The position numbers and the translations under genes are program-made. The notes under the pieces are model-generated. The model saw only the letters and a program-made list of their open reading frames with translations, was not told the origin of the DNA and searched no databases. 64,000 bases of DNA from Prochloron sp. SulCav_FS08_3_32_3330 (GTDB lineage Bacteria; Cyanobacteriota; Cyanobacteriia; Cyanobacteriales; DYNF01): assembly GCA_020721205.1 (NCBI GenBank), contig DYNF01000003.1, positions 15,038-79,037 of the forward strand, read 5' to 3'. This document shows positions 5,602-64,000 of this stretch, in pieces. How positions within the stretch are numbered: the first letter of the stretch is position 1; every line of letters begins with the position of its first letter.

Positions 5602-5665
5602 TGATTAATATATTTAAGAAATAACAAAATATCATAACATCTCAATGGTAAAATAAGCGAATTAA

Positions 5666-5695
5666 TGTAGAGATGTTTCATGAAACGTCTCTACA
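5666..5695. repeat. H1 palindromic hairpin copy (TGTAGAGATGTTTCATGAAACGTCTCTACA)
   Basis: Read directly. Confidence 0.85.
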
Positions 5696-5826: not shown

Positions 5827-6801
5827 ATGGTTAATCTCATCGAAGATCAAAAAATGGATCGTTTTGCGATCGCTACTTATGGACTAACAAAACAATTTGA
5901 GCGCCAAATTGCGGTTAATGATTTAGAATTACAAGTAGACCGAGGGGAAGTTTACGGACTGATCGGACCTAACGGGGCGGGTAAAACGACCTTAATAAGG
6001 ATGTTAGCCGCCGCCGAGGAGCCGACTACAGGCGAAATCTATATTAATGGGGAAAGATTACTCAGAGATGACAGTAATCCCCGTTTAAAGCAGAGTTTGG
6101 GCTATCTACCCGATGATTTTCCCCTCTATGATGATTTAACCGTGTGGGATTATTTAGATTATTTTGCCAGACTTTATTATTTAAAACAACCGAAGCGTCG
6201 ACGACGTTTAAATGAAGTTTTAGAATTAGTGGATCTTACCAGTAAAAGAGATAGTTTGATCGCCACTTTATCTAGGGGCATGAAACAGCGTTTAAGTCTT
6301 GCTAGAACTATTATACATGAGCCTGTATTATTATTATTAGATGAGCCTGTTTCCGGTTTAGATCCTAGGGCAAGAATGCACTTTCGAGAAATTATTAAAG
6401 TCTTACAAGAAGCAGGAATGACTATTTTAATTTCTTCTCATGTTTTATCAGATTTGGCAGAATTATGTACTTCTGTGGGTATTATGGAATTAGGGTTTTT
6501 AGTAGAAAGTTGTACTCTTAAAGACTTATATAAGCGTTTATCTCGTCAACAAATTATTATTTCTACCCTTGGCAAAATGGACGATTTAGAAAGTGAATTA
6601 AAAAATAATTCTTTGGTGGAAGGATGGGAAAATTTAAACAAAGATAATACTTTAAAAGTCAATTTTTCTGGTAATCCTGAAGATAGTTCTCTATTATTAA
6701 AACAGTTAATTTTACAAGAAATTCCGATTACAGAATTTCATTGTAAAAATGAAGATTTAGAAACTATTTTCTTAAAAATGGGTCATCAACAAGTCTGTTA
6801 A
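5827..6801 (+). CDS. ABC transporter ATP-binding protein (ABC-2 exporter type)
   Basis: Walker A GPNGAGKTT, signature LSRGMKQRLSLA, Walker B LLLLDEP. The start may be the internal ATG at 5854. Confidence 0.9.
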   Translation: MVNLIEDQKMDRFAIATYGLTKQFERQIAVNDLELQVDRGEVYGLIGPNGAGKTTLIRMLAAAEEPTTGEIYINGERLLRDDSNPRLKQSLGYLPDDFPLYDDLTVWDYLDYFARLYYLKQPKRRRRLNEVLELVDLTSKRDSLIATLSRGMKQRLSLARTIIHEPVLLLLDEPVSGLDPRARMHFREIIKVLQEAGMTILISSHVLSDLAELCTSVGIMELGFLVESCTLKDLYKRLSRQQIIISTLGKMDDLESELKNNSLVEGWENLNKDNTLKVNFSGNPEDSSLLLKQLILQEIPITEFHCKNEDLETIFLKMGHQQVC

Positions 6802-14498: not shown

Positions 14499-15857
14499 AT
14501 GATTCCCCACCATAAAATTAAATATTTATTATTAAGTTTAATTTCTTTATCTTTAGTAAGTTGTGTAGGAGAAAAAACTCCTGATCAAATTTATGAGGAT
14601 GTTTCTCCTAGTATTGTTTTAATTAATTATCGAGATCAACCCGGTCATGGCACTGGTTTTTTTGTGGAAGGAAATAAGAGTTTTTGTACTGTTTTAACCG
14701 CTTATCATGTTTTACAACCTACAACAGAAGTTAATATTTCTCTTAATAATAAAGTTATCGTTTCTAGTAGTAATATTTATCATTTAGGTAATACTGATTT
14801 AGGAATTGTTACTTTTTCTTATAATCAAAAATCTTGTCCCTATCCTAGCGTTAAATTAGGTAATTCTGATGAGGTAAAAAGAGGTGAAACAATCCACATT
14901 TTTGGTTATCCTAATCGAGTGGGAGAAAGTCAATTAATTTTACAATTTCCATCGGGTAAAATTACAAATATTGAGTCAATTCCTTTAGCTCAAGGTTATG
15001 CTATTTCCTATGATGCTACGGCGGTGCGTGGTATGAGTGGCGGTGCTGTTGTTAATAGTAAGGGTGAAGTAATTGCTATTCATGGGAAAACTGATTTAGA
15101 CCTGATTACCTTAGCAAGTAATCAAGGTAATACTTTATCACCTGAACAACAAGAAAAGGTAACAGAAATTAATAATCGTGTAGATTCTGTATCACAAATT
15201 AATCATTTTAAATGGGGTATTCCGATTAATAGTTTTAAAGATAATTTTAAGGATATAAATTTAGTGAATCATAGTCCATCTTCCCCTGCTCCAAATGTTA
15301 CTTCAACTCCTGAAATTCCCCCAACTCCTGAAGTTAAACCTCCTATTGAAAATGAGTTTACTTTAGTAACTGATCGGGCAGATTTTACTCGTTTAAATGA
15401 TTTATTAAAAGCCGGAGAATGGAAAGAAGCAGATCAAGAAACTTGGGAATTGATGAAACAAGTTACTAATAGTAAAGAAAGAGTTTATTTAGAAGAAGAA
15501 GATTATCAAAATTTTCCTATCAAAGAATTAAGAATTATGGATCAATTATGGGTAAAATATAGTAAGGGAAAATTTGGTTTTTCGGTACAAAAAGAAATCT
15601 GGATTAAAAATGGTGGTAAATTAGATGGCGAATCCGATTATGATACTTATGAAAAACAGGCTGAAGCATTAGGCTGGAAACAAGGAGATGACTGGCTCAA
15701 TTCTCGTCAACTCACTTTTAATACAAATGCACCAATCGGTCATTTACCTAGTGTAGTGGGGTGGGCTGTTAATTATGGTAAGGGTGAGGAAAAAGTGATT
15801 GACAAGGGGGGAGCATCAGTGCGATCGTGGTATTTTTCTCTATTATCTAAACTTTAG
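14499..15857 (+). CDS. Lipoprotein-signal trypsin-like serine protease fused to a C-terminal GUN4 porphyrin-binding domain
   Basis: Lipobox LSLVSC. Catalytic triad context TAYHVL / TDLGIV / GMSGGAVVN. C-terminus FPIKELRIMDQLWVKYSKGKFGFSVQKEIW...APIGHLPS matches the GUN4 core. Confidence 0.8.
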   Translation: MIPHHKIKYLLLSLISLSLVSCVGEKTPDQIYEDVSPSIVLINYRDQPGHGTGFFVEGNKSFCTVLTAYHVLQPTTEVNISLNNKVIVSSSNIYHLGNTDLGIVTFSYNQKSCPYPSVKLGNSDEVKRGETIHIFGYPNRVGESQLILQFPSGKITNIESIPLAQGYAISYDATAVRGMSGGAVVNSKGEVIAIHGKTDLDLITLASNQGNTLSPEQQEKVTEINNRVDSVSQINHFKWGIPINSFKDNFKDINLVNHSPSSPAPNVTSTPEIPPTPEVKPPIENEFTLVTDRADFTRLNDLLKAGEWKEADQETWELMKQVTNSKERVYLEEEDYQNFPIKELRIMDQLWVKYSKGKFGFSVQKEIWIKNGGKLDGESDYDTYEKQAEALGWKQGDDWLNSRQLTFNTNAPIGHLPSVVGWAVNYGKGEEKVIDKGGASVRSWYFSLLSKL

Positions 15858-53575: not shown

Positions 53576-56500
53576 ATGCCGAGAATATTTGATAACATTG
53601 ACCAAAAATTAGTAGAAGGATTAGCATATAGTCTTGATTCGGCTTATAGTGCTGACTTTTGTGTTGGTTATGTAAATTTACGAGGATGGCGTTTAATTGC
53701 TGATAAAATCGAGCATTTTTCAGGGGGCAATAATCAACAATGTCGAGTTTTAATTGGGATGCAAAAATTACCTTCAACTCAACTCTATGAGGAGTTGAAA
53801 ATCCTGAAAACTACAGAAACTGCTATTTCTCAGAAACAAATACCTAATCTAAAAAACTTGATTGTGCGAGAATTTAGAGAACAATTAATGGTAGGTGTTC
53901 CCAGCATTGCTGATGAAAAGGGTTTACAACAATTAAGGCAACAACTTTTAAGCCAAAAAGTAACAGTTAAGCTTCATTTACGTTATCCTCTCCATGCTAA
54001 ACTTTATTTACTCCATAAAAAAGACCAAGATCAACCAATGATCGGTTATTTAGGTAGTAGTAATTTAACTTTTTCTGGCTTAAAAAATCAGGGCGAATTA
54101 AATATTGATGTTTTAGATCATGATGCTACAAATAAGTTACAGGAATGGTTTAACGATCGCTGGAATGATCGCTTTTGTGTTGATATAAGTCAAGAATTAG
54201 CAAATATTATTGACGAAAGTTGGGCTACAGAAAAATTAATTCCTCCCTACTATATTTATCTCAAAATGGCTTATCATCTTTCTCAAGAAGCAAGGGATGG
54301 TTTAAGTCAATACGCTATTCCCTCAGAATTTAAACTATTTGATTTTCAGGAAGCCTCTGTTAAAATTGCCTGTCATCATGTCAACCGCCGAGGGGGTGTC
54401 ATTATTGGGGATGTGGTAGGTTTAGGTAAGACGATGATAGGCACAGCGATCGCCCGTATCTTAGAGGAAGATTTAGGTTATAGTACATTAATAATTTGTC
54501 CAAAAAATCTAGTGGCGATGTGGGAAAGTTATCGAGATAATTATGGTTTAAGGGCAAAAATTTTGTCTATTAGTATGGTGGAAAAAGAGTTAGAAAATAT
54601 ACCCGCTCGATTTAGATTAGTTTTAATTGATGAGAGTCATAATTTACGCAATCGTGACGGAAAAAGATACGCTTATATTAAAGATTATATTGAACAAAGT
54701 GGTAGTCGTTGTATTTTGTTAACGGCGACTCCCTATAATAAAACTTACCTTGATTTATCGGCACAATTAAGATTATTTATTAGAGAAGATCAAGACTTAG
54801 GAATTAGACCAGAAGAACTATTAAGAAATAGTAAATTTTCGGTGCAATATCCTGAGATTAGTCCTCGCACTTTAAAAGCTTTTGAAAAAAGCGAATATTC
54901 CGAAGATTGGCAACAATTAATGAGTAAATATATGGTGCGTCGTACTCGTAGTTTTATTCGGGCTAATTATGCTCAATTAGACATAGAAAAAAACAAGAAA
55001 TATTTAGAATTTGCTGATGGTACTCGTTCTTATTTTCCAGATCGTCTTCCGAAAACTGCTACTTTTAAACTAGGAGAAAAGGATCCCTATTCTCAACTTT
55101 ATTCTCCTCAAGTAGTAGATATTATTAGTAATTTGAATTTACCTCGTTATGCTTTAGGGAGTTATCAATTAACTACTATTTCTGAGAAATTATTAACAAC
55201 AAAAGAGAAAGATTTATTAGATAGTTTATCCCGTGCCGGAAGAAATTTAATCGGCTTTTGTCGCACTAATTTATTTAAAAGATTAGAAAGCAGTGGTTAT
55301 GCTTTTCTTGAGTCTATTGAAAGACATATTTTAAGAAATTATATCTATTTATATGCCATAGAATCAAACGTAGATATTCCTATTGGTACTCAAGATGTGG
55401 ACTTATTTTCTACCAGTTTAAATGACCAAGATCCGGATTCTACTTTAAGTAATAACCTAGATATTGATGATGAAAATAATGATGAAGATGAAGATGATTT
55501 AGAAGGTTTTGAAACCTTAGAAAAACAAGAATTAATCTATCAAGAAAAAGCCCAACAAGTTTATCAAGTTTATCAAGATAAATATCAAAAAAGATTTAAG
55601 TGGATTAGACCTAATTTATTTAATCAAGATTTAATCAAACATTTACGAGAAGATGCTCATAATCTCTTAACAATATTAAATAATGCTCCCCAATGGACAA
55701 CAGAAAATGACCAAAAACTCTTAGCTTTATATGACTTAATTACTAAAACTCATCCCGATGAAAAAATATTAATCTTCTCTCAATTTGCTGATACGGTTAA
55801 TTACTTAGGAGAAAAATTAACTAATTTAGACTTAAAAAACTTTGCTCGATGCTCGGGTAAATCAGAAAATCCTACTATTCTCGCTCAAAGATTTAGCCCT
55901 AAAAGTAATAATAAATATTTCCCCCCCTCCCAAGAATTAAGAGTTTTAATTGCAACAGATGTACTATCAGAAGGGCAAAATTTACAAGATTGTCGCATTA
56001 TCGTTAATTATGACTTACCTTGGGCGATTATCCGTTTAATTCAAAGGGCTGGAAGGGTAGATCGCATCGGGCAAAAAGCCTCCGAAATACTCTGTTATTC
56101 CTTTTTGCCGGAGGAAGGGGTGGAAAAATTGATTAATCTGAGAGGAAGACTCGGCGATCGCCTGAAAGAAAATGCGGAAGTTGTTGGCACTGATGAAATC
56201 TTTTTTGAAGGTGGCAATGATCAAGTAATCTTAGATTTATACCATGAAAAAGCAGGTATTTATGATGAGGCAGAAGACTCAGAAGTTGATTTAGTTTCTG
56301 AGGCTTTGAGTATTTGGGAGTCTGCAAAAGAAAAATATCCTGATATTGCTCAAAAAATTGAACAATTACCTAATGTTATTTATTCTACTCGTCACCATCC
56401 CCCCGAAGAAATTAATCCTCAAGGAGTTTTAATGTATATGCGTACTAGCGATGGGGTGGATGCTTTAGCTTATGTAGATGAAAATGGGAAAAGTGTTACT

Positions 56501-56962
56501 CAATCTCAAAGTCGCATTTTAAGACTCGCCCGTTGTGAATTGGAAACTGAGGCGATTAAGAGGAATCCGGCACATTTTGATTTAGTGAATAAAGGAGCAG
56601 AAATTATTGCTCAACAACAGAAAAAAATGGCAGGAGGAGGGAAGTTGGGAAGCCCTAACAGTGCAAGGGCAAAAACCTATAATCGTCTGAGTAATTATCT
56701 CCAAGAGATTAAAACCCATACTCCTATTTTAGCTAAAGGGCAACAATGGGATAATTTAACTAAAGCGGTGGAAAATATCTATAATTATCCTCTCAGTGAA
56801 AGGGCAATTACTCGTTTAAATCGTCAATTAAGAAGTGGGATTAGGGATCAACAATTAGCGGATTTAGTATTATCTTTGTGGGAAGATCAAGCTTTATTTG
56901 TCACATACGAAGATCAACAAATTAGAGACAGTCAAATTATTTGTTCATTAGGATTATTTTAA
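53576..56962 (+). CDS. HKD (PLD-family) nuclease domain fused to SNF2-family helicase
   Basis: N-terminal HAKLYLL...GSSNLT HKD motif. Helicase motifs GLGKT, LIDESHNLRN, LLTATP, SEGQNLQD, QRAGRVDRIGQ. Architecture matches the CDD class PLDc_N_Snf2_like. Confidence 0.88.
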   Translation: MPRIFDNIDQKLVEGLAYSLDSAYSADFCVGYVNLRGWRLIADKIEHFSGGNNQQCRVLIGMQKLPSTQLYEELKILKTTETAISQKQIPNLKNLIVREFREQLMVGVPSIADEKGLQQLRQQLLSQKVTVKLHLRYPLHAKLYLLHKKDQDQPMIGYLGSSNLTFSGLKNQGELNIDVLDHDATNKLQEWFNDRWNDRFCVDISQELANIIDESWATEKLIPPYYIYLKMAYHLSQEARDGLSQYAIPSEFKLFDFQEASVKIACHHVNRRGGVIIGDVVGLGKTMIGTAIARILEEDLGYSTLIICPKNLVAMWESYRDNYGLRAKILSISMVEKELENIPARFRLVLIDESHNLRNRDGKRYAYIKDYIEQSGSRCILLTATPYNKTYLDLSAQLRLFIREDQDLGIRPEELLRNSKFSVQYPEISPRTLKAFEKSEYSEDWQQLMSKYMVRRTRSFIRANYAQLDIEKNKKYLEFADGTRSYFPDRLPKTATFKLGEKDPYSQLYSPQVVDIISNLNLPRYALGSYQLTTISEKLLTTKEKDLLDSLSRAGRNLIGFCRTNLFKRLESSGYAFLESIERHILRNYIYLYAIESNVDIPIGTQDVDLFSTSLNDQDPDSTLSNNLDIDDENNDEDEDDLEGFETLEKQELIYQEKAQQVYQVYQDKYQKRFKWIRPNLFNQDLIKHLREDAHNLLTILNNAPQWTTENDQKLLALYDLITKTHPDEKILIFSQFADTVNYLGEKLTNLDLKNFARCSGKSENPTILAQRFSPKSNNKYFPPSQELRVLIATDVLSEGQNLQDCRIIVNYDLPWAIIRLIQRAGRVDRIGQKASEILCYSFLPEEGVEKLINLRGRLGDRLKENAEVVGTDEIFFEGGNDQVILDLYHEKAGIYDEAEDSEVDLVSEALSIWESAKEKYPDIAQKIEQLPNVIYSTRHHPPEEINPQGVLMYMRTSDGVDALAYVDENGKSVTQSQSRILRLARCELETEAIKRNPAHFDLVNKGAEIIAQQQKKMAGGGKLGSPNSARAKTYNRLSNYLQEIKTHTPILAKGQQWDNLTKAVENIYNYPLSERAITRLNRQLRSGIRDQQLADLVLSLWEDQALFVTYEDQQIRDSQIICSLGLF

Positions 56963-57204
56963 AGTTTGGAGTTTATAATGCGATTTTTAAAGTCTTCTTC
57001 AAACATTAAATTAGCTCTTTCTCTTAGTTCAGTTTGCTTTTTTCCTTGAGGTAAAATAGCAATACCATAAAGGATCTCTGCTTGAGTTATTGTAGTTGTA
57101 AATAAATTATTTATATTTTGTTGTGCTGTCCAATTATAGACATTTTCTGAACATTTATTACCTTTCATTAGTTCGGAAATAATGTTAGTATCTAAAATTA
57201 TCAT
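56959..57204 (-). pseudogene. Truncated VapC/FitB-like PIN toxin (81 aa, lacks the C-terminal acidic residues)
   Basis: MIILDTNIISELM...TQAEILYG covers only the first two of the four PIN catalytic acid positions. The 3' end overlaps the helicase stop codon. Confidence 0.6.
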
Positions 57205-57440
57205 TAGTTAAAGTTAGGGGGTTGACGCATTTTATCTCTAGTAATTAGGGGCATTTCTACTTCTTCTAAATCCCTAAATCTTTGGGTAATTCTTTGGGCT
57301 AGGTTTAAAGAATTTTGGTTTTCTTGGGTTAAACAATTACGCAAGATTTCGGTTATTTCTTGTTCTAATGTATGCCCTTTTTTCTGAGCTTGTTGTTGGA
57401 GTTTGTCGGTTAATTCATCATCAAGGTTGATTGTTAGCAT
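57204..57440 (-). CDS. RHH-type antitoxin (VapB/FitA-like)
   Basis: MLTINLDDELTDKLQQQAQKKGHTLEQEITEILRN. 1-nt overlap with the PIN gene. Confidence 0.7.
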   Translation of the reverse strand: MLTINLDDELTDKLQQQAQKKGHTLEQEITEILRNCLTQENQNSLNLAQRITQRFRDLEEVEMPLITRDKMRQPPNFN

Positions 57441-57530
57441 AATTAATTACTCCTTTAAAACTTGATCTTGATGATATAATATAGCTGTAAATAATAATCT
57501 TGTCAATTTACTTAAAACAAAAAACAAAAT

Positions 57531-57740
57531 ATGTCTAATCTACAAACCTTAGAAAATAGCTCATTAATTGAGCAAAGATTAAGCAATTTAGAACAGGAAT
57601 TATCAACAAGTCAAAAAATCTTAAGCTCTAATTTTCAAGAATCTTACTGGTGGTTAAAAATTGCCGGAACTTTTGCAAATGATCCTACTTTTGATGAAGT
57701 TGAAAACCTCTGTCAAGAGTGGCGTAAATCGGCTTATTAA
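57531..57740 (+). CDS. Small conserved hypothetical (antitoxin-like, orphan)
   Basis: 69 aa. The AGTFANDPTFDEV...WRKS motif recurs in small cyanobacterial proteins usually paired with toxins (from memory, unverified). Confidence 0.45.
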   Translation: MSNLQTLENSSLIEQRLSNLEQELSTSQKILSSNFQESYWWLKIAGTFANDPTFDEVENLCQEWRKSAY

Positions 57741-57768
57741 AAACTAATTAAAACTAGAAGAATAAACC

Positions 57769-58077
57769 ATGAAAACAACTCACTATTTAACAACAAAAAT
57801 ACAAAAAGGAAATCGCTTAGATTTATACCTTCCTGAATTGGCTGAAGGGCAAAATGTAGAAGTCATTATTATTGTATCAGAAAATCAAACTATTAATAAT
57901 AGTGAAAATAATTTAGCACAATCAAAAAATTCAGAGCCAAATATGATCTCAAAATCATTAGCAGAGCGCCGTCAATTGATGGCACAACAGGCAGAAGCTA
58001 TGCAAAAATATTATGAAGAAGATCAATCATGGCGAGAGTGGGTTAATTTAGATTTAGGAGAGATATATGAGTATTAA
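57769..58077 (+). CDS. Putative antitoxin partner of MazF
   Basis: 102 aa. 11-nt overlap with the mazF-like gene. Confidence 0.55.
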   Translation: MKTTHYLTTKIQKGNRLDLYLPELAEGQNVEVIIIVSENQTINNSENNLAQSKNSEPNMISKSLAERRQLMAQQAEAMQKYYEEDQSWREWVNLDLGEIYEY

Positions 58078-58429
58078 ACCTCAAAGGGGGGAAATTTGGT
58101 TAGTTAACTTAGATCCTACCATTGGAGCAGAAATCAAAAAAACTCGACCTGTGGTTATTGTTAGCTCTAATACTTTGGGAAAATTACCATTAAAATTAGT
58201 TGTGCCAATAACTGATTGGAAAGACTCTTTTATTAATAATTTATGGCACGTTAAAATTAATCCTAACTCCCATAATGGATTAACGAAAAAATCCGTTGCC
58301 GATGCTTTACAAACTAGAAGTATTGATCTAACAAGATTTATTCAAAAGTTAGGAAATTTATCCTCCGAAAAGTTACAACAAATAAATACTGCTATTGTTA
58401 ATCTAATTGAATATGAACATGAAAATTAA
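58067..58429 (+). CDS. mazF: MazF/PemK-family endoribonuclease toxin
   Basis: PQRGEIWLVNLDPTIGAEIKKTRPVVIVS. Confidence 0.88.
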   Translation: MSIKPQRGEIWLVNLDPTIGAEIKKTRPVVIVSSNTLGKLPLKLVVPITDWKDSFINNLWHVKINPNSHNGLTKKSVADALQTRSIDLTRFIQKLGNLSSEKLQQINTAIVNLIEYEHEN

Positions 58430-61400
58430 TCGCAAAAACATTACTAAACATCTCGATCGCCTTGAGTTTGAATCCCTTTTTATTGAAGAATTAGGTTGGG
58501 ATTATCCCGAAGATAATACCGATAAATCTATTAATATTGATGAACAAATATTCACTTTAACTCCCATTGCTGAAAAACGGGGTTTTAATGTGTTTCTTTG
58601 CCTATTAGAAAATCAATCAATTCCCCTTTCTCCTACTCTCAAAAAAATAGATCAAGAAGTTAGTAAATATTCTTATGAACATTTTATTATTTATGTTTCA
58701 GAAATTGATAAAACTCAAAAATGGCAATGGATCAAAAAAGAAGTCAATAAACCTTTAGCTAATCGCACTGTGGAATATTCTACCCAGAAGAAAGAGGCTT
58801 TATTACAGGTATTAGATACCATTGCTGTTGACTTAGAGGAAGAAGAAAATCTTAATTTACTTGAAGTAAAATCAAAAGCAAAAAAAGCCTTTGATGTGGA
58901 TAAAGTTACTAAGAAATTCTATGATAAATTTAAGAAAGAACATAGTCAATTTTTAAGTTTTATTGAAGGCATAAATATAGATTTTGATCAAGAATGGTAT
59001 GCTTCTTTAATACTTAATCGTCTCATGTTTGTTTATTTTATCCAGAAAAAAGGCTTTTTAGATGGTAATATTAATTATCTACGAGATAAACTAAAAGCCC
59101 TCACCCCCCCAACCCCCCTCTCCCAAAGGGCGAGGGGGGAGTCAGACTCCTCTCAATTCTCCCCTCTCCCCGTGGGAGAGGGGCTGGGGGTGAGGGTTAA
59201 ATTTTACTCTTTCTATCGTTACTTTTTATTAAGATTATTTCATGATGGTTTAGGTAGTCAAAATCGCACCCCTGAATTAGATAATTTATTAGGAAAAGTA
59301 CCCTATTTAAACGGCGGTTTATTTGAAGTTCATCCTTTAGAAATTAAGTATCCTAATATTAATATTAAAGATTCTGCTTTTGAGCAAATTTTTACCTTTT
59401 TTGATCAATATAATTGGCATTTAGATGAGCGCCCTTTAAAACAAGATAATGAAATTAATCCTGATGTTTTAGGTTACATTTTTGAGAAATATATTAACCA
59501 AAAACAAATGGGGGCATATTATACTAAAGAAGATATTACTGAATATATTAGTAAAAACTGCATTATTCCCTATTTATTTGATACGGTTAAACAAGATTTA
59601 TTAGGCTATTTATCACCAGAGGAAGTTAATCATAATTTAGGTTTTTATTTACTCCAAGAAAATCCCGATCGCTATATTTATTCAGCAGTTAAAAAAGGTG
59701 TAGATTTACCTTTACCTGATGATATTACTAAAGGAATAAATGATGTTTCTCAACGTAATAATTGGAATATTCCTGCGGATGAAAATTATGGTTTACCTAC
59801 TGAATTATGGCGAGAATTTATTGCAAGGAGAAATCGCTGTTTAGAAATAAGAGAAAAATTAACTAAGGGTGAAATTACGAATATTAATGATTTAATTACC
59901 TATAATCTTAATATTCGTCAATTTGCTCAAGATGCTATTTCTAATCTTAATTCTCCCTTAATTCTCAATATTTTCTATCAGAAATTAGCCTCAATGTCTA
60001 TCTTAGATCCTACCTGTGGCAGTGGTGCTTTTTTATTTTCCGCCTTAAATATTCTTGAGCCTCTTTATGATGCTTGTTTAGAAAAAATGCAGGAATTTAC
60101 CCTCACCCCCCCAACCCCCCTCTCCCAAAGGGCGAAGGGGGAGTTAAGTCACTCACCCGGAGAGCGGGTGGAAAAGTGGGAAATTTCACCTGAGTTGGCA
60201 CAAAAAATGAAGGAAATTGCCCGTAAATTAAGGAAAGAAACCACTCCTAGCGAAAAAATCCTTTGGGAAGCATTAAAAAATCGCCAATTATGTCAGCAAA
60301 AATTTAGAAGACAACATCCAATCGGTGTTTTTGTTGTTGATTTTTATTGTCATGAAAAAAAATTAATTATTGAAATTGATGGCAGTATTCACAATTTACC
60401 TGAGCAAAAAATATTAGATCGTCAACGTCAAGAATTATTAGAATCTTTAGGGTTACGTTTCTTAAGAATTAGTAGTAAACAAGTAGAAACCGACTTACGA
60501 GAAACCTTAAAAATCATCGAAAAAAACCTTTTTTTATCCCCAGAATCAAACTCCCCCCTCGCCTCTTGGGAGAGGGGGGCTGGGGGGGTGAGGGCTAAAT
60601 TTCAAGGCATTTTAGCCAATATTAGAAGTCATAGTCATAATAGTAATGAAAATTCAGCGCGTAAATATTTTATCCTCAAAAATATCATACTTAATAATCT
60701 TTTTGGGGTGGATATTATGGAGGAAGCGACAGAAATTTGTAAGTTACGTTTATTCCTTAAATTAGCTTCTCAAGTTACCTCTAATCCTAATAATAAAAAT
60801 TATGGAATTGAGCCTTTACCTGATATTGATTTTAATATCCGTTGTGGTAATAGTTTAGTCGGTTTTGCTAATTATCAGGAAGTGGAAAAAGCCGTTAAAG
60901 GTGATAGTCAAACTAAGTTAGATTTATTTGATGATATGAGTATTATCAATGATAAAGCTAAAGCTGTGAGTGAGGTTTATCAAACTTTTAGATCTATGCA
61001 AACTCAATCGGATAATGGGATTAATTTTCGGGAAACTAAACAGAAATTACAGGCAAGTTTAGCTGGTTTAAATGATGAATTAAATCAATATTTAGCAAGG
61101 GAATATGGGATAGATATTAAGAAGAAAAAAGAGTTTGAAAAATGGTTAATTTCTCATCAACCTTTCCACTGGTTTACGGAGTTTTATTCGATTATTAATC
61201 ATGGAGGTTTTGATGTGATTATTGGTAATCCTCCTTATGTTGAATATAAAGATATTAAAACAAATTATCAACCTATTAATTATATTACAAAAACTTGCAG
61301 TAATCTTTTTGTATATATTTTAGAAAAATGTACATTTTTAAGTCATCAAAATTCTTATATTGGTATGATTATTCCTTTAAGTGCATTTAGCACTGATAGA

Positions 61401-62237
61401 ATGACACCATTAATTAATCATATTAAACAAACATCTTTAGAATTATATTTAGCTAATTTTAGTTGGCGACCCGGAAAACTTTTTGATGGTGTTAATTTAC
61501 AATTAACAATTTTACTTCAAAAAATGGGCTACAAAAATAATAACATTTATACAACTAAATATATTTTATGGGAATCTGAAACTCGTCCTCAATTATTTTC
61601 TAAAATTGAATTTACTGCAACTAATGATAATAGATTATCAGGCTCTATTCCAAAATTAGGTAATAAAAAAGGAGCTTTAATATTAGATAAGTTAAGAAAA
61701 GAAAAAAGCGAAATAGGACATTATTTTACAAAAAAATCAAATAATATTGTATTTTATAGAAGGGGAGGATTATATTGGAAGGTTTTTGTAGATTTTCCTA
61801 CAGAATCAAGTGAAGAAAAAATCATTTATCTTTTAGAAAATATTGACAAATATTTAATAGTTGCTGTTTTAAGTAGTAATCTTTGGTTTTGGTATTTTAC
61901 GATAACATCTGATTGTCGTCACTTAGGAAATAGAGATATTAATACTTTTCCACTTGATATTAAAAACTTATCCAATGAAATATACAAAAAACTTGCTTTT
62001 TTAGGAGAAAAATATGTCAATGACTTAAAATTAAACGCCGAAAATACAATAAGAGTTTATAAAGGGAAAAAATCAGTAGAATGTTTATCATTTAAAGTAA
62101 ATCAATCAAAACCAATAATAGATGAAATAGATAAAATATTAGCAGAACATTATGAATTTACAGAAGAAGAATTAGATTTTATAATTAATTATGATATTAA
62201 ATATCGGATGGGTAAAGAGTTGGGAGAAGAAGATTAA
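58407..62237 (+). CDS. Large Eco57I/COG1002-type N6-adenine (amino) DNA methyltransferase with TaqI_C-like specificity domain, carrying two in-frame TIR-element insertions
   Basis: Motif I ILDPTCGSGAFL (about 60000-60040), LFGVDI, motif IV NPPY (61226-61237). C-terminus EEELDFIINYD. Likely true start at ATG 58419 (MKINRK), as in the paralog remnant at 10640. Confidence 0.85.
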   Translation: MNMNMKINRKNITKHLDRLEFESLFIEELGWDYPEDNTDKSINIDEQIFTLTPIAEKRGFNVFLCLLENQSIPLSPTLKKIDQEVSKYSYEHFIIYVSEIDKTQKWQWIKKEVNKPLANRTVEYSTQKKEALLQVLDTIAVDLEEEENLNLLEVKSKAKKAFDVDKVTKKFYDKFKKEHSQFLSFIEGINIDFDQEWYASLILNRLMFVYFIQKKGFLDGNINYLRDKLKALTPPTPLSQRARGESDSSQFSPLPVGEGLGVRVKFYSFYRYFLLRLFHDGLGSQNRTPELDNLLGKVPYLNGGLFEVHPLEIKYPNINIKDSAFEQIFTFFDQYNWHLDERPLKQDNEINPDVLGYIFEKYINQKQMGAYYTKEDITEYISKNCIIPYLFDTVKQDLLGYLSPEEVNHNLGFYLLQENPDRYIYSAVKKGVDLPLPDDITKGINDVSQRNNWNIPADENYGLPTELWREFIARRNRCLEIREKLTKGEITNINDLITYNLNIRQFAQDAISNLNSPLILNIFYQKLASMSILDPTCGSGAFLFSALNILEPLYDACLEKMQEFTLTPPTPLSQRAKGELSHSPGERVEKWEISPELAQKMKEIARKLRKETTPSEKILWEALKNRQLCQQKFRRQHPIGVFVVDFYCHEKKLIIEIDGSIHNLPEQKILDRQRQELLESLGLRFLRISSKQVETDLRETLKIIEKNLFLSPESNSPLASWERGAGGVRAKFQGILANIRSHSHNSNENSARKYFILKNIILNNLFGVDIMEEATEICKLRLFLKLASQVTSNPNNKNYGIEPLPDIDFNIRCGNSLVGFANYQEVEKAVKGDSQTKLDLFDDMSIINDKAKAVSEVYQTFRSMQTQSDNGINFRETKQKLQASLAGLNDELNQYLAREYGIDIKKKKEFEKWLISHQPFHWFTEFYSIINHGGFDVIIGNPPYVEYKDIKTNYQPINYITKTCSNLFVYILEKCTFLSHQNSYIGMIIPLSAFSTDRMTPLINHIKQTSLELYLANFSWRPGKLFDGVNLQLTILLQKMGYKNNNIYTTKYILWESETRPQLFSKIEFTATNDNRLSGSIPKLGNKKGALILDKLRKEKSEIGHYFTKKSNNIVFYRRGGLYWKVFVDFPTESSEEKIIYLLENIDKYLIVAVLSSNLWFWYFTITSDCRHLGNRDINTFPLDIKNLSNEIYKKLAFLGEKYVNDLKLNAENTIRVYKGKKSVECLSFKVNQSKPIIDEIDKILAEHYEFTEEELDFIINYDIKYRMGKELGEED
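59098..59196 (+). mobile_element. 99-bp GC-rich TIR-only element (MITE form) inside the methyltransferase ORF, in frame
   Basis: Arms CCCTCACCCCCCCAACCCCCCTCTCCCAAAGGGCGAGGGGGGAG (59098-59141) and CCCCTCTCCCCGTGGGAGAGGGGCTGGGGGTGAGGG (59161-59196) are imperfect reverse complements. Encodes LTPPTPLSQRARGESDSSQFSPLPVGEGLGVR. Confidence 0.8.
60100..60594 (+). mobile_element. 495-bp TIR element encoding a DUF559 (Vsr-fold) endonuclease, inserted in frame in the methyltransferase
   Basis: Same arms as the 99-bp element (60100-60143, 60551-60594). Internal translation MKEIARKLRKETTPSEKILWEALKNRQLCQQKFRRQHPIGVFVVDFYCHEKKLIIEIDGSIHN...LGLRFLRISSKQV. Confidence 0.8.
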
Positions 62238-62356
62238 AATAAGTTTGAAAAGTCGGGGATTTTGGGAATCTCTGACTTTTGAGATAACAAGTAAAAATAC
62301 TTGTGATATAATGATAATTAAACATTAAAAAATTAAACATTAAAAAGGAAGTAAAA

Positions 62357-62569
62357 ATGACATTAACTCAACTAATACCAACTATTCATAACTTAAATCG
62401 TAGTGATAAAATACAACTATTACAAATAATAGTCAATGATTTAGCCGAAGAAGAAAAAAACTTAGGCTTAAAGCATAACGAAGATTATCCTATTTATTCC
62501 CCATTAAACGCTTTTTCTGCGGCAGATACCTTATTAAAATTATTAGAAGAACATCAAAAAAATGATTAA
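62357..62569 (+). CDS. Small hypothetical protein, partner of the retropepsin-like gene
   Basis: 70 aa. 8-nt overlap with the next ORF. Confidence 0.5.
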   Translation: MTLTQLIPTIHNLNRSDKIQLLQIIVNDLAEEEKNLGLKHNEDYPIYSPLNAFSAADTLLKLLEEHQKND

Positions 62570-62978
62570 ATCTCAAAGATTTTCTTATCAACAAATTAAC
62601 CAAAGAATAGGAGAAGCAGGTTATCTACCTTTTCTTCCTATTACATTAATTAATGATCATAATTCATTAACAGTTTCAGGATTATTAGATAGCGGTGCAA
62701 CAGTTAATGTATTACCCTATAATTTAGGCAGACAATTAGGCTTAGAATGGGAAAAACAAACAATTTCTATGAATCTAACCGGAAATTTAGCTAATTACGA
62801 ATCAAGAGCAGTTTTATTAACAGGAAAAATTAACGATTTAGCACCTTTCAATTTAGCATTTGCTTGGACAAAAGCCGAAAATATCTCTTTAATATTAGGA
62901 CAAGTTAATTTTTTTATAGAATTTGATGTTTGTTTTTATCGTTCTCAATTATTATTTGAAATAACACCTAAACGATGA
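62562..62978 (+). CDS. Retropepsin-like (clan AA) aspartic protease
   Basis: LLDSGATVNVLP active-site motif. 138 aa. Confidence 0.7.
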   Translation: MIKSQRFSYQQINQRIGEAGYLPFLPITLINDHNSLTVSGLLDSGATVNVLPYNLGRQLGLEWEKQTISMNLTGNLANYESRAVLLTGKINDLAPFNLAFAWTKAENISLILGQVNFFIEFDVCFYRSQLLFEITPKR

Positions 62979-62997
62979 AATAGAGTGCTTTACATCT

Positions 62998-63110
62998 AGG
63001 GAGGAAGTTGGGAGAAGAAGATTAAAATAAGTTTGAAAAGTCGGGGTATTTGTTAAATCTAGTTACTTTTGAGTGTTATTAAATGAATAATGATGTTATA
63101 ATCAAAAAAG
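62998..63110 (+). repeat. Second copy of the methyltransferase 3'-end/downstream junction
   Basis: 63007-63046 is identical over 40 nt to 62219-62258 (GTTGGGAGAAGAAGATTAAAATAAGTTTGAAAAGTCGGGG). Similarity continues more weakly for about 60 nt. Confidence 0.85.
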
Positions 63111-63129
63111 ATTTCATAATGAGGTAACA

Positions 63130-63369
63130 ATGAAAACATTAATTAAACTAAAAATAGAAAGATTTACCGAAAAAGATGAAGAATATTTTGTCGCCACCAG
63201 TGACGATTTAAAAGGTTTAGTTGCTGAAGGTAAAACAATCAAAGAAGTAATAGAAATTGCTGAAGATCTTGCCAAAATATTATTAGAATTAGAAAAAGAA
63301 ACATCCAATCTAACTATTAATCAGAATATTCCTAATATTATTGAATATCCCTTATTAATGGAGGTATAA
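63130..63369 (+). CDS. hicB: HicB-family antitoxin
   Basis: EEYFVATSDDLKGLVAEGKTIKEVIEIAEDLAKILLE (UPF0150/HicB N-domain). Confidence 0.8.
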   Translation: MKTLIKLKIERFTEKDEEYFVATSDDLKGLVAEGKTIKEVIEIAEDLAKILLELEKETSNLTINQNIPNIIEYPLLMEV

Positions 63370-63590
63370 TGGGCAGACTATCAGGGTTTTCTTACCAAAA
63401 AGTTACTCAAAAATTAAATAAATTAGGGTTTAAATTTTATCGTAGTGCCAAAGGAGACCATGAAATTTGGTTTAATCCAGAAACTAAAGCTAAAACAACT
63501 ATTCCTCATCATCGAGAAATTAAAGAAGGCACATTAAGAAATATTTTAAAACAAGCACAAATAGAGGTAGATTTATTTCTTAATACTTAA
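63369..63590 (+). CDS. hicA: HicA-family mRNA interferase toxin
   Basis: SYQKVTQKLNKLGFKFYRSAKGDHEIWFNP...TIPHHREIKEGTLRNILKQA. Confidence 0.85.
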   Translation: MGRLSGFSYQKVTQKLNKLGFKFYRSAKGDHEIWFNPETKAKTTIPHHREIKEGTLRNILKQAQIEVDLFLNT

Positions 63591-63591
63591 T

Positions 63592-63704
63592 CTATAGATA
63601 AAATATTAGGGGAACATTACGGATTTACAGATGAAGAATTAGATTTTATCATTAATTATGATATTAAATATCGGATGGGTAAAGAGTTAGGAGAAGAAGA
63701 TTAA
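63592..63704 (+). pseudogene. Third copy of the methyltransferase 3' end (last about 37 codons plus stop), detached remnant
   Basis: Aligns to 62124-62237 at about 92 percent identity by eye. Encodes IDKILGEHYGFTDEELDFIINYDIKYRMGKELGEED, and begins 1 nt after the hicA stop. Confidence 0.85.
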
Positions 63705-63748
63705 CTTGAAAAAATTAAGCTTAATTAAGCTTTCTGTGTTAGCATATT

Positions 63749-63886
63749 ATGTCAAAGGCAATTATTTATCGCATTGATGAAGATGCAATCATCATTATTG
63801 AAGTTTTTAAGAAAACTACCAATAAAACCCCCAAAAAAGTAATCGAAATTTGTCAAAAAAGATTAAAACAATATGATTTAATTTAA
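63749..63886 (+). pseudogene. N-terminally truncated RelE/HigB (Gp49-like) toxin remnant, 45 aa
   Basis: Own translation MSKAIIYRIDEDAIIIIEVFKKTTNKTPKKVIEICQKRLKQYDLI, which is the C-terminal half of Gp49-like toxins. Confidence 0.6.
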
Positions 63887-63898
63887 AGGAAAAGAATT

Positions 63899-64000
63899 AT
63901 GGATTTAGAGAAAAAACAACGCTTAGAAGCCCAAGGTTGGCAAGTAGGGCGTTTTCATTCTCGGGGGAAAATTGTTAGCCCTCACCCCCTCTCCCAAGGG
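63899..64000 (+). pseudogene. HigA/XRE-like antitoxin 5' part, apparently interrupted by another GC-rich TIR element (arm from 63979)
   Basis: MDLEKKQRLEAQGWQVG then unrelated RFHSRGKIVS, followed by CCCTCACCCCCTCTCCCAAGGG at the window end. Confidence 0.5.

Follow-up and report, generated by a model that had tools for sequence, protein, structure and literature searches.

The 64,000-nt stretch of DNA analyzed here (the window; positions 15,038 to 79,037 of contig DYNF01000003.1 from the cyanobacterium Prochloron sp. SulCav_FS08_3_32_3330) is chromosomal and AT-rich (31% GC). Toward its right-hand end it carries a gene for a type IIG-like N6-adenine methylase of the Eco57I/MmeI family, and the extreme 3' end of this gene, referred to below as the tail, occurs three times on the same strand, with three different cassettes of small genes between and after the copies (Table 1). 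The presence of three copies had been proposed in a first-pass annotation made from the letters alone, and it proved to be real and far above chance. The outer repeat (62127-62237 versus 63594-63704) covers 111 nt with 104 identical positions (94%), and its similarity stops exactly at the methylase stop codon. Nested within it, the inner repeat has a core of 47 nt at 96% identity (62218-62264 versus 63006-63052), which includes an exact run of 41 nt (62218-62258 and 63006-63046) made up of the last 17 coding nucleotides, the stop codon, and the 21 nt immediately after it; a weaker extension through the terminator region to 62283 and 63073 gives 68 nt at 87%. Two cassettes are flanked by these repeats. 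The 16-mer GGGAGAAGAAGATTAA is found at all three tail sites (with one mismatch in copy 3), compared to a chance expectation of 0.12 in the window. Two of the previously proposed limits were adjusted: copy 3 begins at 63594, 3 nt after the hicA stop codon (63588-63590), rather than at 63592 and 1 nt after it, and the homologous part of copy 2 is 63006-63073 rather than 62998-63110.

Only 111 nt and 66 nt are repeated, and not units of 1467 nt and 788 nt, the spans between the copies; a tandem duplication was therefore rejected, and the repeats are considered to flank insertions. A diversity-generating retroelement was also rejected, since no reverse transcriptase was called nearby, the seven mismatches fall at C, T, G, and A positions, and the tail is hyper-conserved, the opposite of a variable repeat.

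The hairpin reported downstream of copy 1 is indeed a strong terminator-like stem, and none of 200 shuffled sequences folded as well. Its counterpart at copy 2 has lost the fold (z = -0.08). Tail copies 1 and 3 themselves fold no better than shuffled sequence (z = +0.34 and +0.40), and attC-like folding was rejected on these values. A sigma-70-like site (TTTACA, 17 nt, TATAAT or TATCAT) is present in tail copies 1 and 3 (62157-62185 and 63624-63652); transcription of the downstream cassette could start there, although the site probably just reflects the AT-rich sequence. Tail copy 3 also lies in the reading frame of hicA with only TAA and TCT between them (63588-63704), so that readthrough would fuse both; this shared frame is probably a coincidence, with one chance in three.

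Table 1. Tail copies, cassettes, and partner genes in the window (window positions; aa, amino acids; HMM, hidden Markov model; TA, toxin-antitoxin).
Feature	Position	Strand	Basis
Tail copy 1, attached: last 36 codons and stop, encoding IDKILAEHYEFTEEELDFIINYDIKYRMGKELGEED and then the stop	62127..62237	+	Repeat family; tail HMM 62079-62213, positions 1-45
Inner repeat, left copy: last 17 coding nt, stop, terminator region	62218..62283	+	Self-comparison
Terminator-like hairpin, then UUUUGAG	62243..62285	+	RNA fold -20.8 kcal/mol, z = -6.0
Tail copy 2, displaced: last 17 coding nt, stop, decayed terminator	63006..63073	+	41-nt exact run
Tail copy 3, displaced: last 36 codons and stop	63594..63704	+	104/111 versus copy 1; tail HMM positions 16-45
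Cassette 1, discrete unit	62294..62979	+	95.6% identical over 686 nt to locus L137
Predicted PDC-M52A, 70 aa	62357-62569	+	PADLOC PDC-M52A E = 3.7e-6
Predicted PDC-M52B, retropepsin-like, 138 aa	62562-62978	+	PADLOC PDC-M52B E = 7e-51, full length; Pfam Asp_protease_2
Cassette 2, predicted hicB (63130-63369) and hicA (63369-63590)	63130..63590	+	HicA_toxin PF07927 E = 6e-18; DUF1902 E = 6.8e-5
Cassette 3, degraded higBA	63749..64000	+	Runs past window end; continuation L001 10531-10830
Type IIG-like Eco57I/MmeI-family N6-adenine methylase, 1274 aa as called	58413..62237	+	Pfam Eco57I 1e-23, MmeI_Mtase
HKD(PLD)-SNF2 helicase-nuclease, methylase partner	53576..56962	+	Pfam PLDc_2, SNF2-rel_dom, Helicase_C; PADLOC 'HKD+Snf2' E = 8e-49
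vapC (PIN) and FitA-like antitoxin, TA pair between helicase and methylase	56959..57440	-	Pfam PIN, FitA-like_RHH on identical contig L001
MazE-like (102 aa) and MazF/PemK toxin (120 aa)	57769..58429	+	PF02452 PemK_toxin E = 3.9e-26

Cassette 1, next to the intact gene, is predicted to encode PDC-M52, a candidate defense system in PADLOC, with the small A protein adjacent to the aspartyl-protease-like B protein. It has a promoter-like site of its own at 62284-62312 (promoter scan). A near-identical cassette lies behind a different Eco57I-type methylase in locus L137, which belongs to another genome and where the tail is not duplicated. The leader of cassette 1 contains a perfect 15-nt tandem repeat, AATTAAACATTAAAA, in two copies (62316-62345), which is imperfect in the L137 copy. 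A paralogous PDC-M52 cassette, with a protease 87% identical, was found on another contig of the same metagenome-assembled genome (MAG; locus L132) between asnB and an S-adenosylmethionine (SAM)-methyltransferase gene; a 27-nt direct repeat at 85% identity (5664-5690 and 6483-6509), borderline for chance, lies over the start of the downstream gene there.

Cassette 2 resembles a type II hicAB TA system, in which a HicA domain stands beside a HicB-type antitoxin and the two genes overlap at 63369. In cassette 3, the higB fragment (63749-63886) retains the C-terminal third of Gp49 only (PF05973 positions 59-90 of 90), and a GC-rich element breaks up the open reading frame (ORF) taken as higA, which begins at 63899 and terminates prematurely. 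Thus, domain profiles bear out the earlier identification of the protease pair, hicBA, and a truncated higB, while the reconstructed higA had no match in Pfam and owes its name to position and sequence motifs only. The GC-rich element in higA is of the same kind as two in the methylase gene described below; it extends from 63935 to 64000 and on into L001 10567-10756, and is bounded by a 14-nt direct repeat, GGTTGGCAAGTAGG. Nearly all close relatives of the cassette proteins come from cyanobacteria; the nearest with a named source, from Geminocystis herdmanii, is 71% identical, which points to a host of the Geminocystis/Cyanobacterium type. The arrangement is identical in five assemblies of the species (one NCBI MAG, two JGI metagenomes, and two Logan assemblies), and look-ups of the exact HicA, PDC-M52B, and MazF proteins returned only contigs with the identical arrangement.

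The C-terminal 384 residues of the methylase have more than 2600 homologues, of which the closest outside the strain is 70% identical and most of those listed are 38-46% identical. Nearly all of them end alike over approximately 37 residues (SKPIIDEIDrvLAqHYGFTdEELDFIINYDIKYRMG). Between loci from different phyla, the last 19 codons have a mean DNA identity of 81% (95th percentile, 89.5%), which is approximately the value for identical peptides with randomized third positions, so the conservation of the tail reflects protein function rather than recent transfer. In comparison, five loci, the window included, have tail copies that match each other at 96-100% over their final 15 codons. The within-locus values, set against the 81% background, fit the high-identity requirement of homologous recombination.

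Recurrence of the arrangement was assessed in two samples. A degenerate pattern for DFIINYDIKYRMG gave 120 listed tiles of 8 kb, not centered on the match, from species-representative genomes, and these were searched by tblastn, the tail HMM, and self-blastn; a second, independent sample consisted of 120 listed metagenome contigs. The listed matches of neither sample include the species of the window, and an exact 26-mer taken from the tail had no match in the metagenome contigs scanned. We recorded cargo genes that are followed by a same-strand partial tail truncated at its 5' end and retaining its 3' end and stop codon. This anatomy was found in 14 of the 120 listed genome loci (L006, L007, L013, L017, L021, L022, L027, L041, L066, L080, L084, L099, L112, and L116), which come from Chloroflexota, Desulfobacterota, Cyanobacteria, Poribacteria, Nitrospirota, Ignavibacteria, Nitrospinota, Binatia, and Armatimonadota, at least nine phyla in total. 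Among genome tiles with at least 1.5 kb downstream, a downstream tail copy was detectable at the DNA level in 13 of 78 (11 of 78 without two weak cases). In the metagenome sample, the count was 5 among the 66 contigs that extend at least 1.5 kb downstream, and about 10 for all 120 listed. As a control, other long ORFs of these tiles were treated alike, and their 3' ends had downstream copies in 8 of 254 cases, mostly intergenic repeats, and coding-sequence matches in 3 of 254; the 13 of 78 differs from both by Fisher's test (p = 1e-4 and 9e-7, respectively).

Two further loci with full-length tandem paralogues of the methylase, L085 and L110, were set apart. They lend some weight to a different origin for the partial tails, namely a former row of family methylases, each followed by a cassette, in which deletions left only the 3' ends; a fragment of a second, different MmeI/Eco57I-type methylase approximately 1.1 kb past the window end, in what is a graveyard of defense genes, would also suit this origin. 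However, the fragments are 3'-terminal only, with no N-terminal or internal pieces of the family found, and without exception they share the strand, retain the stop codon, and come straight after the cargo. In addition, the copies in the window match the attached tail at 94-96%, versus 78-89% between the tails of tandem paralogues, locus L013 fits four tail copies in 2.3 kb, and the enrichment is specific to the methylase gene end. We therefore regard decayed tandem paralogues as quite improbable.

The cargo of the recurrent loci is defense-island material. It includes hicAB in L013 and L116, vapBC in L041, two MNT/HEPN pairs in L013 and a DUF4258-like toxin with a zinc-finger antitoxin in L006 (both named by sequence inspection), YhcG/DUF1016 nucleases in L112 (Pfam) and L187 (sequence inspection), and DUF5131 in L007, whereas L099 carries a RAYT transposase and REP repeats and has a 96-nt tail repeat at 99% identity. 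Metagenome cargo includes RhuM, DUF4411 with an ImmA-like protein, DUF4238, and an AbiJ-like protein, and several loci have further cargo without an assigned family. In several loci, the partial tail begins only 3-27 nt after the stop codon of the cargo, and in several the next gene starts at the stop codon of the partial tail (TGATGA), which means that the displaced gene keeps its native junction with the tail. Two cases of in-frame continuation were noted: in L165 (4807-4989, tail oriented +), a DprA-like N-terminus continues in frame into the tail fragment, and in L099 (3621-4274, tail oriented +), the RAYT transposase ORF terminates in the tail as an in-frame fusion.

The displaced fragments start anywhere from tail-HMM position 8 to 31, and the repeats are 43-141 nt long with locus-specific boundaries. 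These boundaries differ even between loci with similar cargo in related genomes (YhcG in L112 and L187; a membrane protein in L017 and L027), which argues against a fixed crossover site. This bears directly on site-specific integration, by which integron-like or Xer/IMEX-like cassettes would bring a replacement terminus to a defined site in the tail with a recombinase encoded elsewhere. Such a process would account for the compact cassettes, in which the repeat begins so soon after the last stop codon, for direct repeats that restore the target gene as the att sites of integrative elements do, and for repeat lengths in the size range of attC. Against it stand the unstructured tails, the lack of a meaningful Rfam match in the region, the locus-dependent boundaries, and the third codon positions, which look saturated between phyla and thus leave no common DNA site for a site-specific recombinase. 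The recombinase is also missing nearby, where only an IS605-type TnpB fragment was seen, Xer-type sites not having been searched for. The first-pass annotation had seen no integrase, and the genes called over 12 kb on the upstream side and 2.1 kb on the downstream side include none; elsewhere in the window, the screen covered 23 other ORFs against NCBIfam (best 25 of 216 families). Its comparison with integrons and transfer RNA (tRNA) islands is not supported as a mechanism, given unfolded tails, variable boundaries, no shared DNA site, and no nearby integrase. We consider site-specific integration highly improbable.

Three loci are informative about how the copies arise. L013 and L116, which are related cyanobacterial loci, have in common a tail-hicAB-tail module (tails 85-92% identical, whole module 67%). 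Only L013 carries, between the methylase and this module, the two MNT/HEPN cassettes, and the distal genes of the two loci differ as well; L013 and L116 thus differ by a cassette polymorphism between related loci in which the extra cassettes are proximal. The three displaced tails of L013 share a derived indel (GAACAAGGGCGACCTC instead of GAAC-TCGACTTT), and two of them have a further 12-nt insertion in common; both changes are missing from the attached L013 tail and from L116. The shared indels indicate that displaced tails were copied together with cassettes. In L030, a control match, the duplicated segment is the 5' head of the partner PLD-helicase gene (MPRIFDNID...) with its leader, 101 nt at 95% identity (at about 770-955 and 2240-2440), and it also flanks inserted genes, suggesting that what matters is a conserved gene-boundary segment and not one particular sequence.

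The L013 data also weigh on the alternative that the duplications are made de novo. A cassette entering at a staggered break, or through a replication template switch, would copy the recipient tail on both sides, and selection would keep those events that leave intact the methylase and the native upstream context of the downstream gene, whose start overlaps the tail stop. The often 96-100% identity of within-locus copies suits this, as do the RAYT/REP cargo of L099 with its almost perfect repeat, the TGATGA starts for which the duplicate preserves the native upstream context, and the GC-rich element in higA with its 14-nt flanking repeat. On the other hand, de novo duplication offers no explanation of why hyper-conserved segments should be favored over other gene ends of the same islands, and it leaves unexplained both the shared derived indels of the displaced L013 tails and the tail-hicAB-tail module common to two genomes. 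Moreover, the terminator halves of the inner repeat in the window differ sharply right beside the exact run, as two joined alleles would. On balance, de novo duplication appears unlikely.

We conclude with moderate confidence that homologous recombination at the hyper-conserved 3' tail of the type IIG-like methylase gene generated the tail copies and cassettes in the window as a displacement array. The serial insertion at the gene's 3' terminus that was originally suggested is supported as a pattern, seen in the nested repeats, the greatest degradation in the most distal cassette, and the recurrence; of the mechanisms offered with it, the one mentioned as an alternative, recombination among homologous methylase loci, came closer to this explanation. 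The observations underneath are the nested repeats, their polarity, their recurrence and enrichment, and the lack of folded sites and of a nearby recombinase. The precedent is the two-step model for Rhs genes, in which recombination between conserved fragments releases a circle with a fragment and a module, and the circle enters the conserved segment of a closely related gene by a single crossover, shunting the old module downstream (Jackson et al. 2009, PMC2935791). By analogy, a small circle or a tail-flanked fragment, originating in a closely related locus or another part of an existing array, would carry a partial tail with a cassette and recombine with the resident tail, leaving the methylase reading frame intact. 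The new cassette would end up directly after the methylase gene, and the older downstream genes would move one place out with a 5'-truncated tail copy. An existing tail-cassette-tail unit could also be transferred into a naive tail by an ordinary double crossover.

Applied to the window, a first event would have brought the tail, terminator, and hicBA in front of higBA, leaving the 111-nt repeat. A later event would have brought the last 20 nt (17 coding nucleotides and the stop codon), the terminator, and PDC-M52 in front of hicBA, leaving the 66-nt repeat. We infer RecA-type general recombination, the circular intermediate, and the order of these two events. The decay gradient agrees with this order, since the proximal cassette is intact (95.6% identical to L137), the terminator of copy 2 has decayed, and the distal higBA is broken. 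The end of the outer repeat at the stop codon is where loci sharing only the tail would lose homology, and the inner repeat, in which 41 exact nucleotides are followed by sharp divergence, resembles a crossover junction between two alleles more than it does even decay.

Several points weigh against homologous displacement. No circular or excised form has been observed, and the origin of the first circle with a tail and a cassette is left unexplained by the model, a gap that Jackson et al. acknowledge as well (PMC2935791). The distances of 3-27 nt between cargo and partial tails are tidier than random illegitimate circularization predicts, and near-identical copies within a locus are also expected from local de novo duplication at insertion. 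The PDC-M52 cassettes of L137 and L132, which lack a duplication, show that cassettes are independent of the tail route and move in other ways too. The five assemblies of the species are identical, so that no gain or loss of a cassette is caught in this lineage. Finally, among the matches listed, the census tiles are mostly from MAGs or metagenomes, reach at most approximately 14 kb, and have the tail off-center, which makes the frequencies rough.

The logic of the array is that of the Rhs and CdiA displacement arrays, in which C-terminal modules persist as orphan toxin-immunity modules (Jackson et al. 2009, PMC2935791; Poole et al. 2011, PMC3150448). As in those systems, an intact gene is followed by displaced modules on the same strand, each after a variable-length fragment of the conserved gene segment that is close in sequence to the attached copy, which holds for the window, the 14 genome loci, and about 10 metagenome loci. 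There, too, no dedicated recombinase takes part, homologous recombination with circles having been proposed (PMC2935791). In contrast, the methylase array is anchored on the very 3' end of the gene, stop codon included, whereas the Rhs anchor is the core upstream of the variable tip; the cargo genes stand alone, each with its own start, instead of forming in-frame toxin tips; and the host is a restriction-type methylase whose protein is not diversified. The new elements are the methylase host gene, the 3'-end anchor with its stop codon, the free-standing TA and defense cargo, and the breadth across phyla. In a literature search with incomplete coverage, which turned up reviews and hotspot papers, no account of methylase termini duplicated around cassettes was encountered.

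Integron arrays and integrase-less attC clusters are similar in having compact, mostly promoter-poor cassettes in one orientation, a recurring element of 40-140 nt, frequent TA cargo, and the newer cassettes nearest the anchor. Unlike integrons, the methylase array has neither IntI nor a folded attC-like site, and its recurring element is a fragment of a protein gene whose DNA differs between lineages. Islands in the 3' ends of tRNA, transfer-messenger RNA (tmRNA), or protein genes likewise leave a direct repeat of the target 3' end and an intact target, but they encode or borrow a tyrosine or serine integrase and use a fixed core site, whereas the methylase array has cassettes of 0.65-0.8 kb without a recombinase and with variable junctions. 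Diverse TA and defense genes also accumulate in defense hotspots, which lie within or next to restriction-modification operons or between conserved core genes, and where exchange is thought to occur through homology of the conserved flanks. A double crossover in the flanking genes of a hotspot replaces the cargo and leaves no duplicated gene ends; in contrast, each event at a methylase tail would leave a partial tail, and the history would be recorded as an array.

The growth of defense and TA islands beside restriction-modification genes without a mobile-element vehicle is poorly understood. A tentative generalization, to which we give somewhat less than an even chance, is that methylase-tail and helicase-head boundaries act as integrase-free, homology-templated capture sites, with tails as portable anchors, and provide a general route of defense-island growth in many phyla. 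In the strongest form of this tentative proposal, the system's own nuclease-helicase or its DprA-like partner would stimulate capture. If displacement at the tail is correct, a gene end conserved for its protein would supply the same homology at related loci, allowing a simple recombinase-free capture and stacking of cassettes. Partial tails would then record the order of acquisition, readable from the array, and could be used as markers for new defense cargo, and the Rhs-type displacement logic would extend from polymorphic toxins to immune loci.

The match of the methylase to PADLOC REase_MTase_IIG reaches 1101 bits, split over three stretches. The vapBC and mazEF pairs are both situated between the helicase and methylase genes, and housekeeping genes, among them the phototroph marker AcsF, occur in the window. 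According to the gene lists, the relative L003 has the same helicase-methylase pairing, and both L003 and L004 have a DprA-like gene downstream of the methylase; a DprA-like protein (PsyrA-resembling in PADLOC) is the usual downstream neighbor of the family methylases. The second methylase fragment is a central piece located at L001 11100-12362 (approximately 1.1 to 2.4 kb past the window end), and is followed in L001 by the IS605-type TnpB N-terminus (HTH_OrfB_IS605 E = 7e-14). The C-terminal 384 residues of the methylase had no sequence relative in PDB.

An Rfam scan of 56500-64000 gave no match with a meaningful score, and the weak hairpin matches all fell on a GC-rich insertion. Two such palindromic insertions interrupt the methylase gene in frame. 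The first (59099-59197) is 99 nt long. The second (60100-60594; 495 nt, or 165 codons) ends in 46-nt inverted repeats (60100-60145 and 60549-60594) that are 91% complementary, and encodes a DUF559/Vsr-like endonuclease domain (E = 1.2e-29) translated in the host frame. In these features, the insertions appear similar to the in-frame palindromic elements of Rickettsia.

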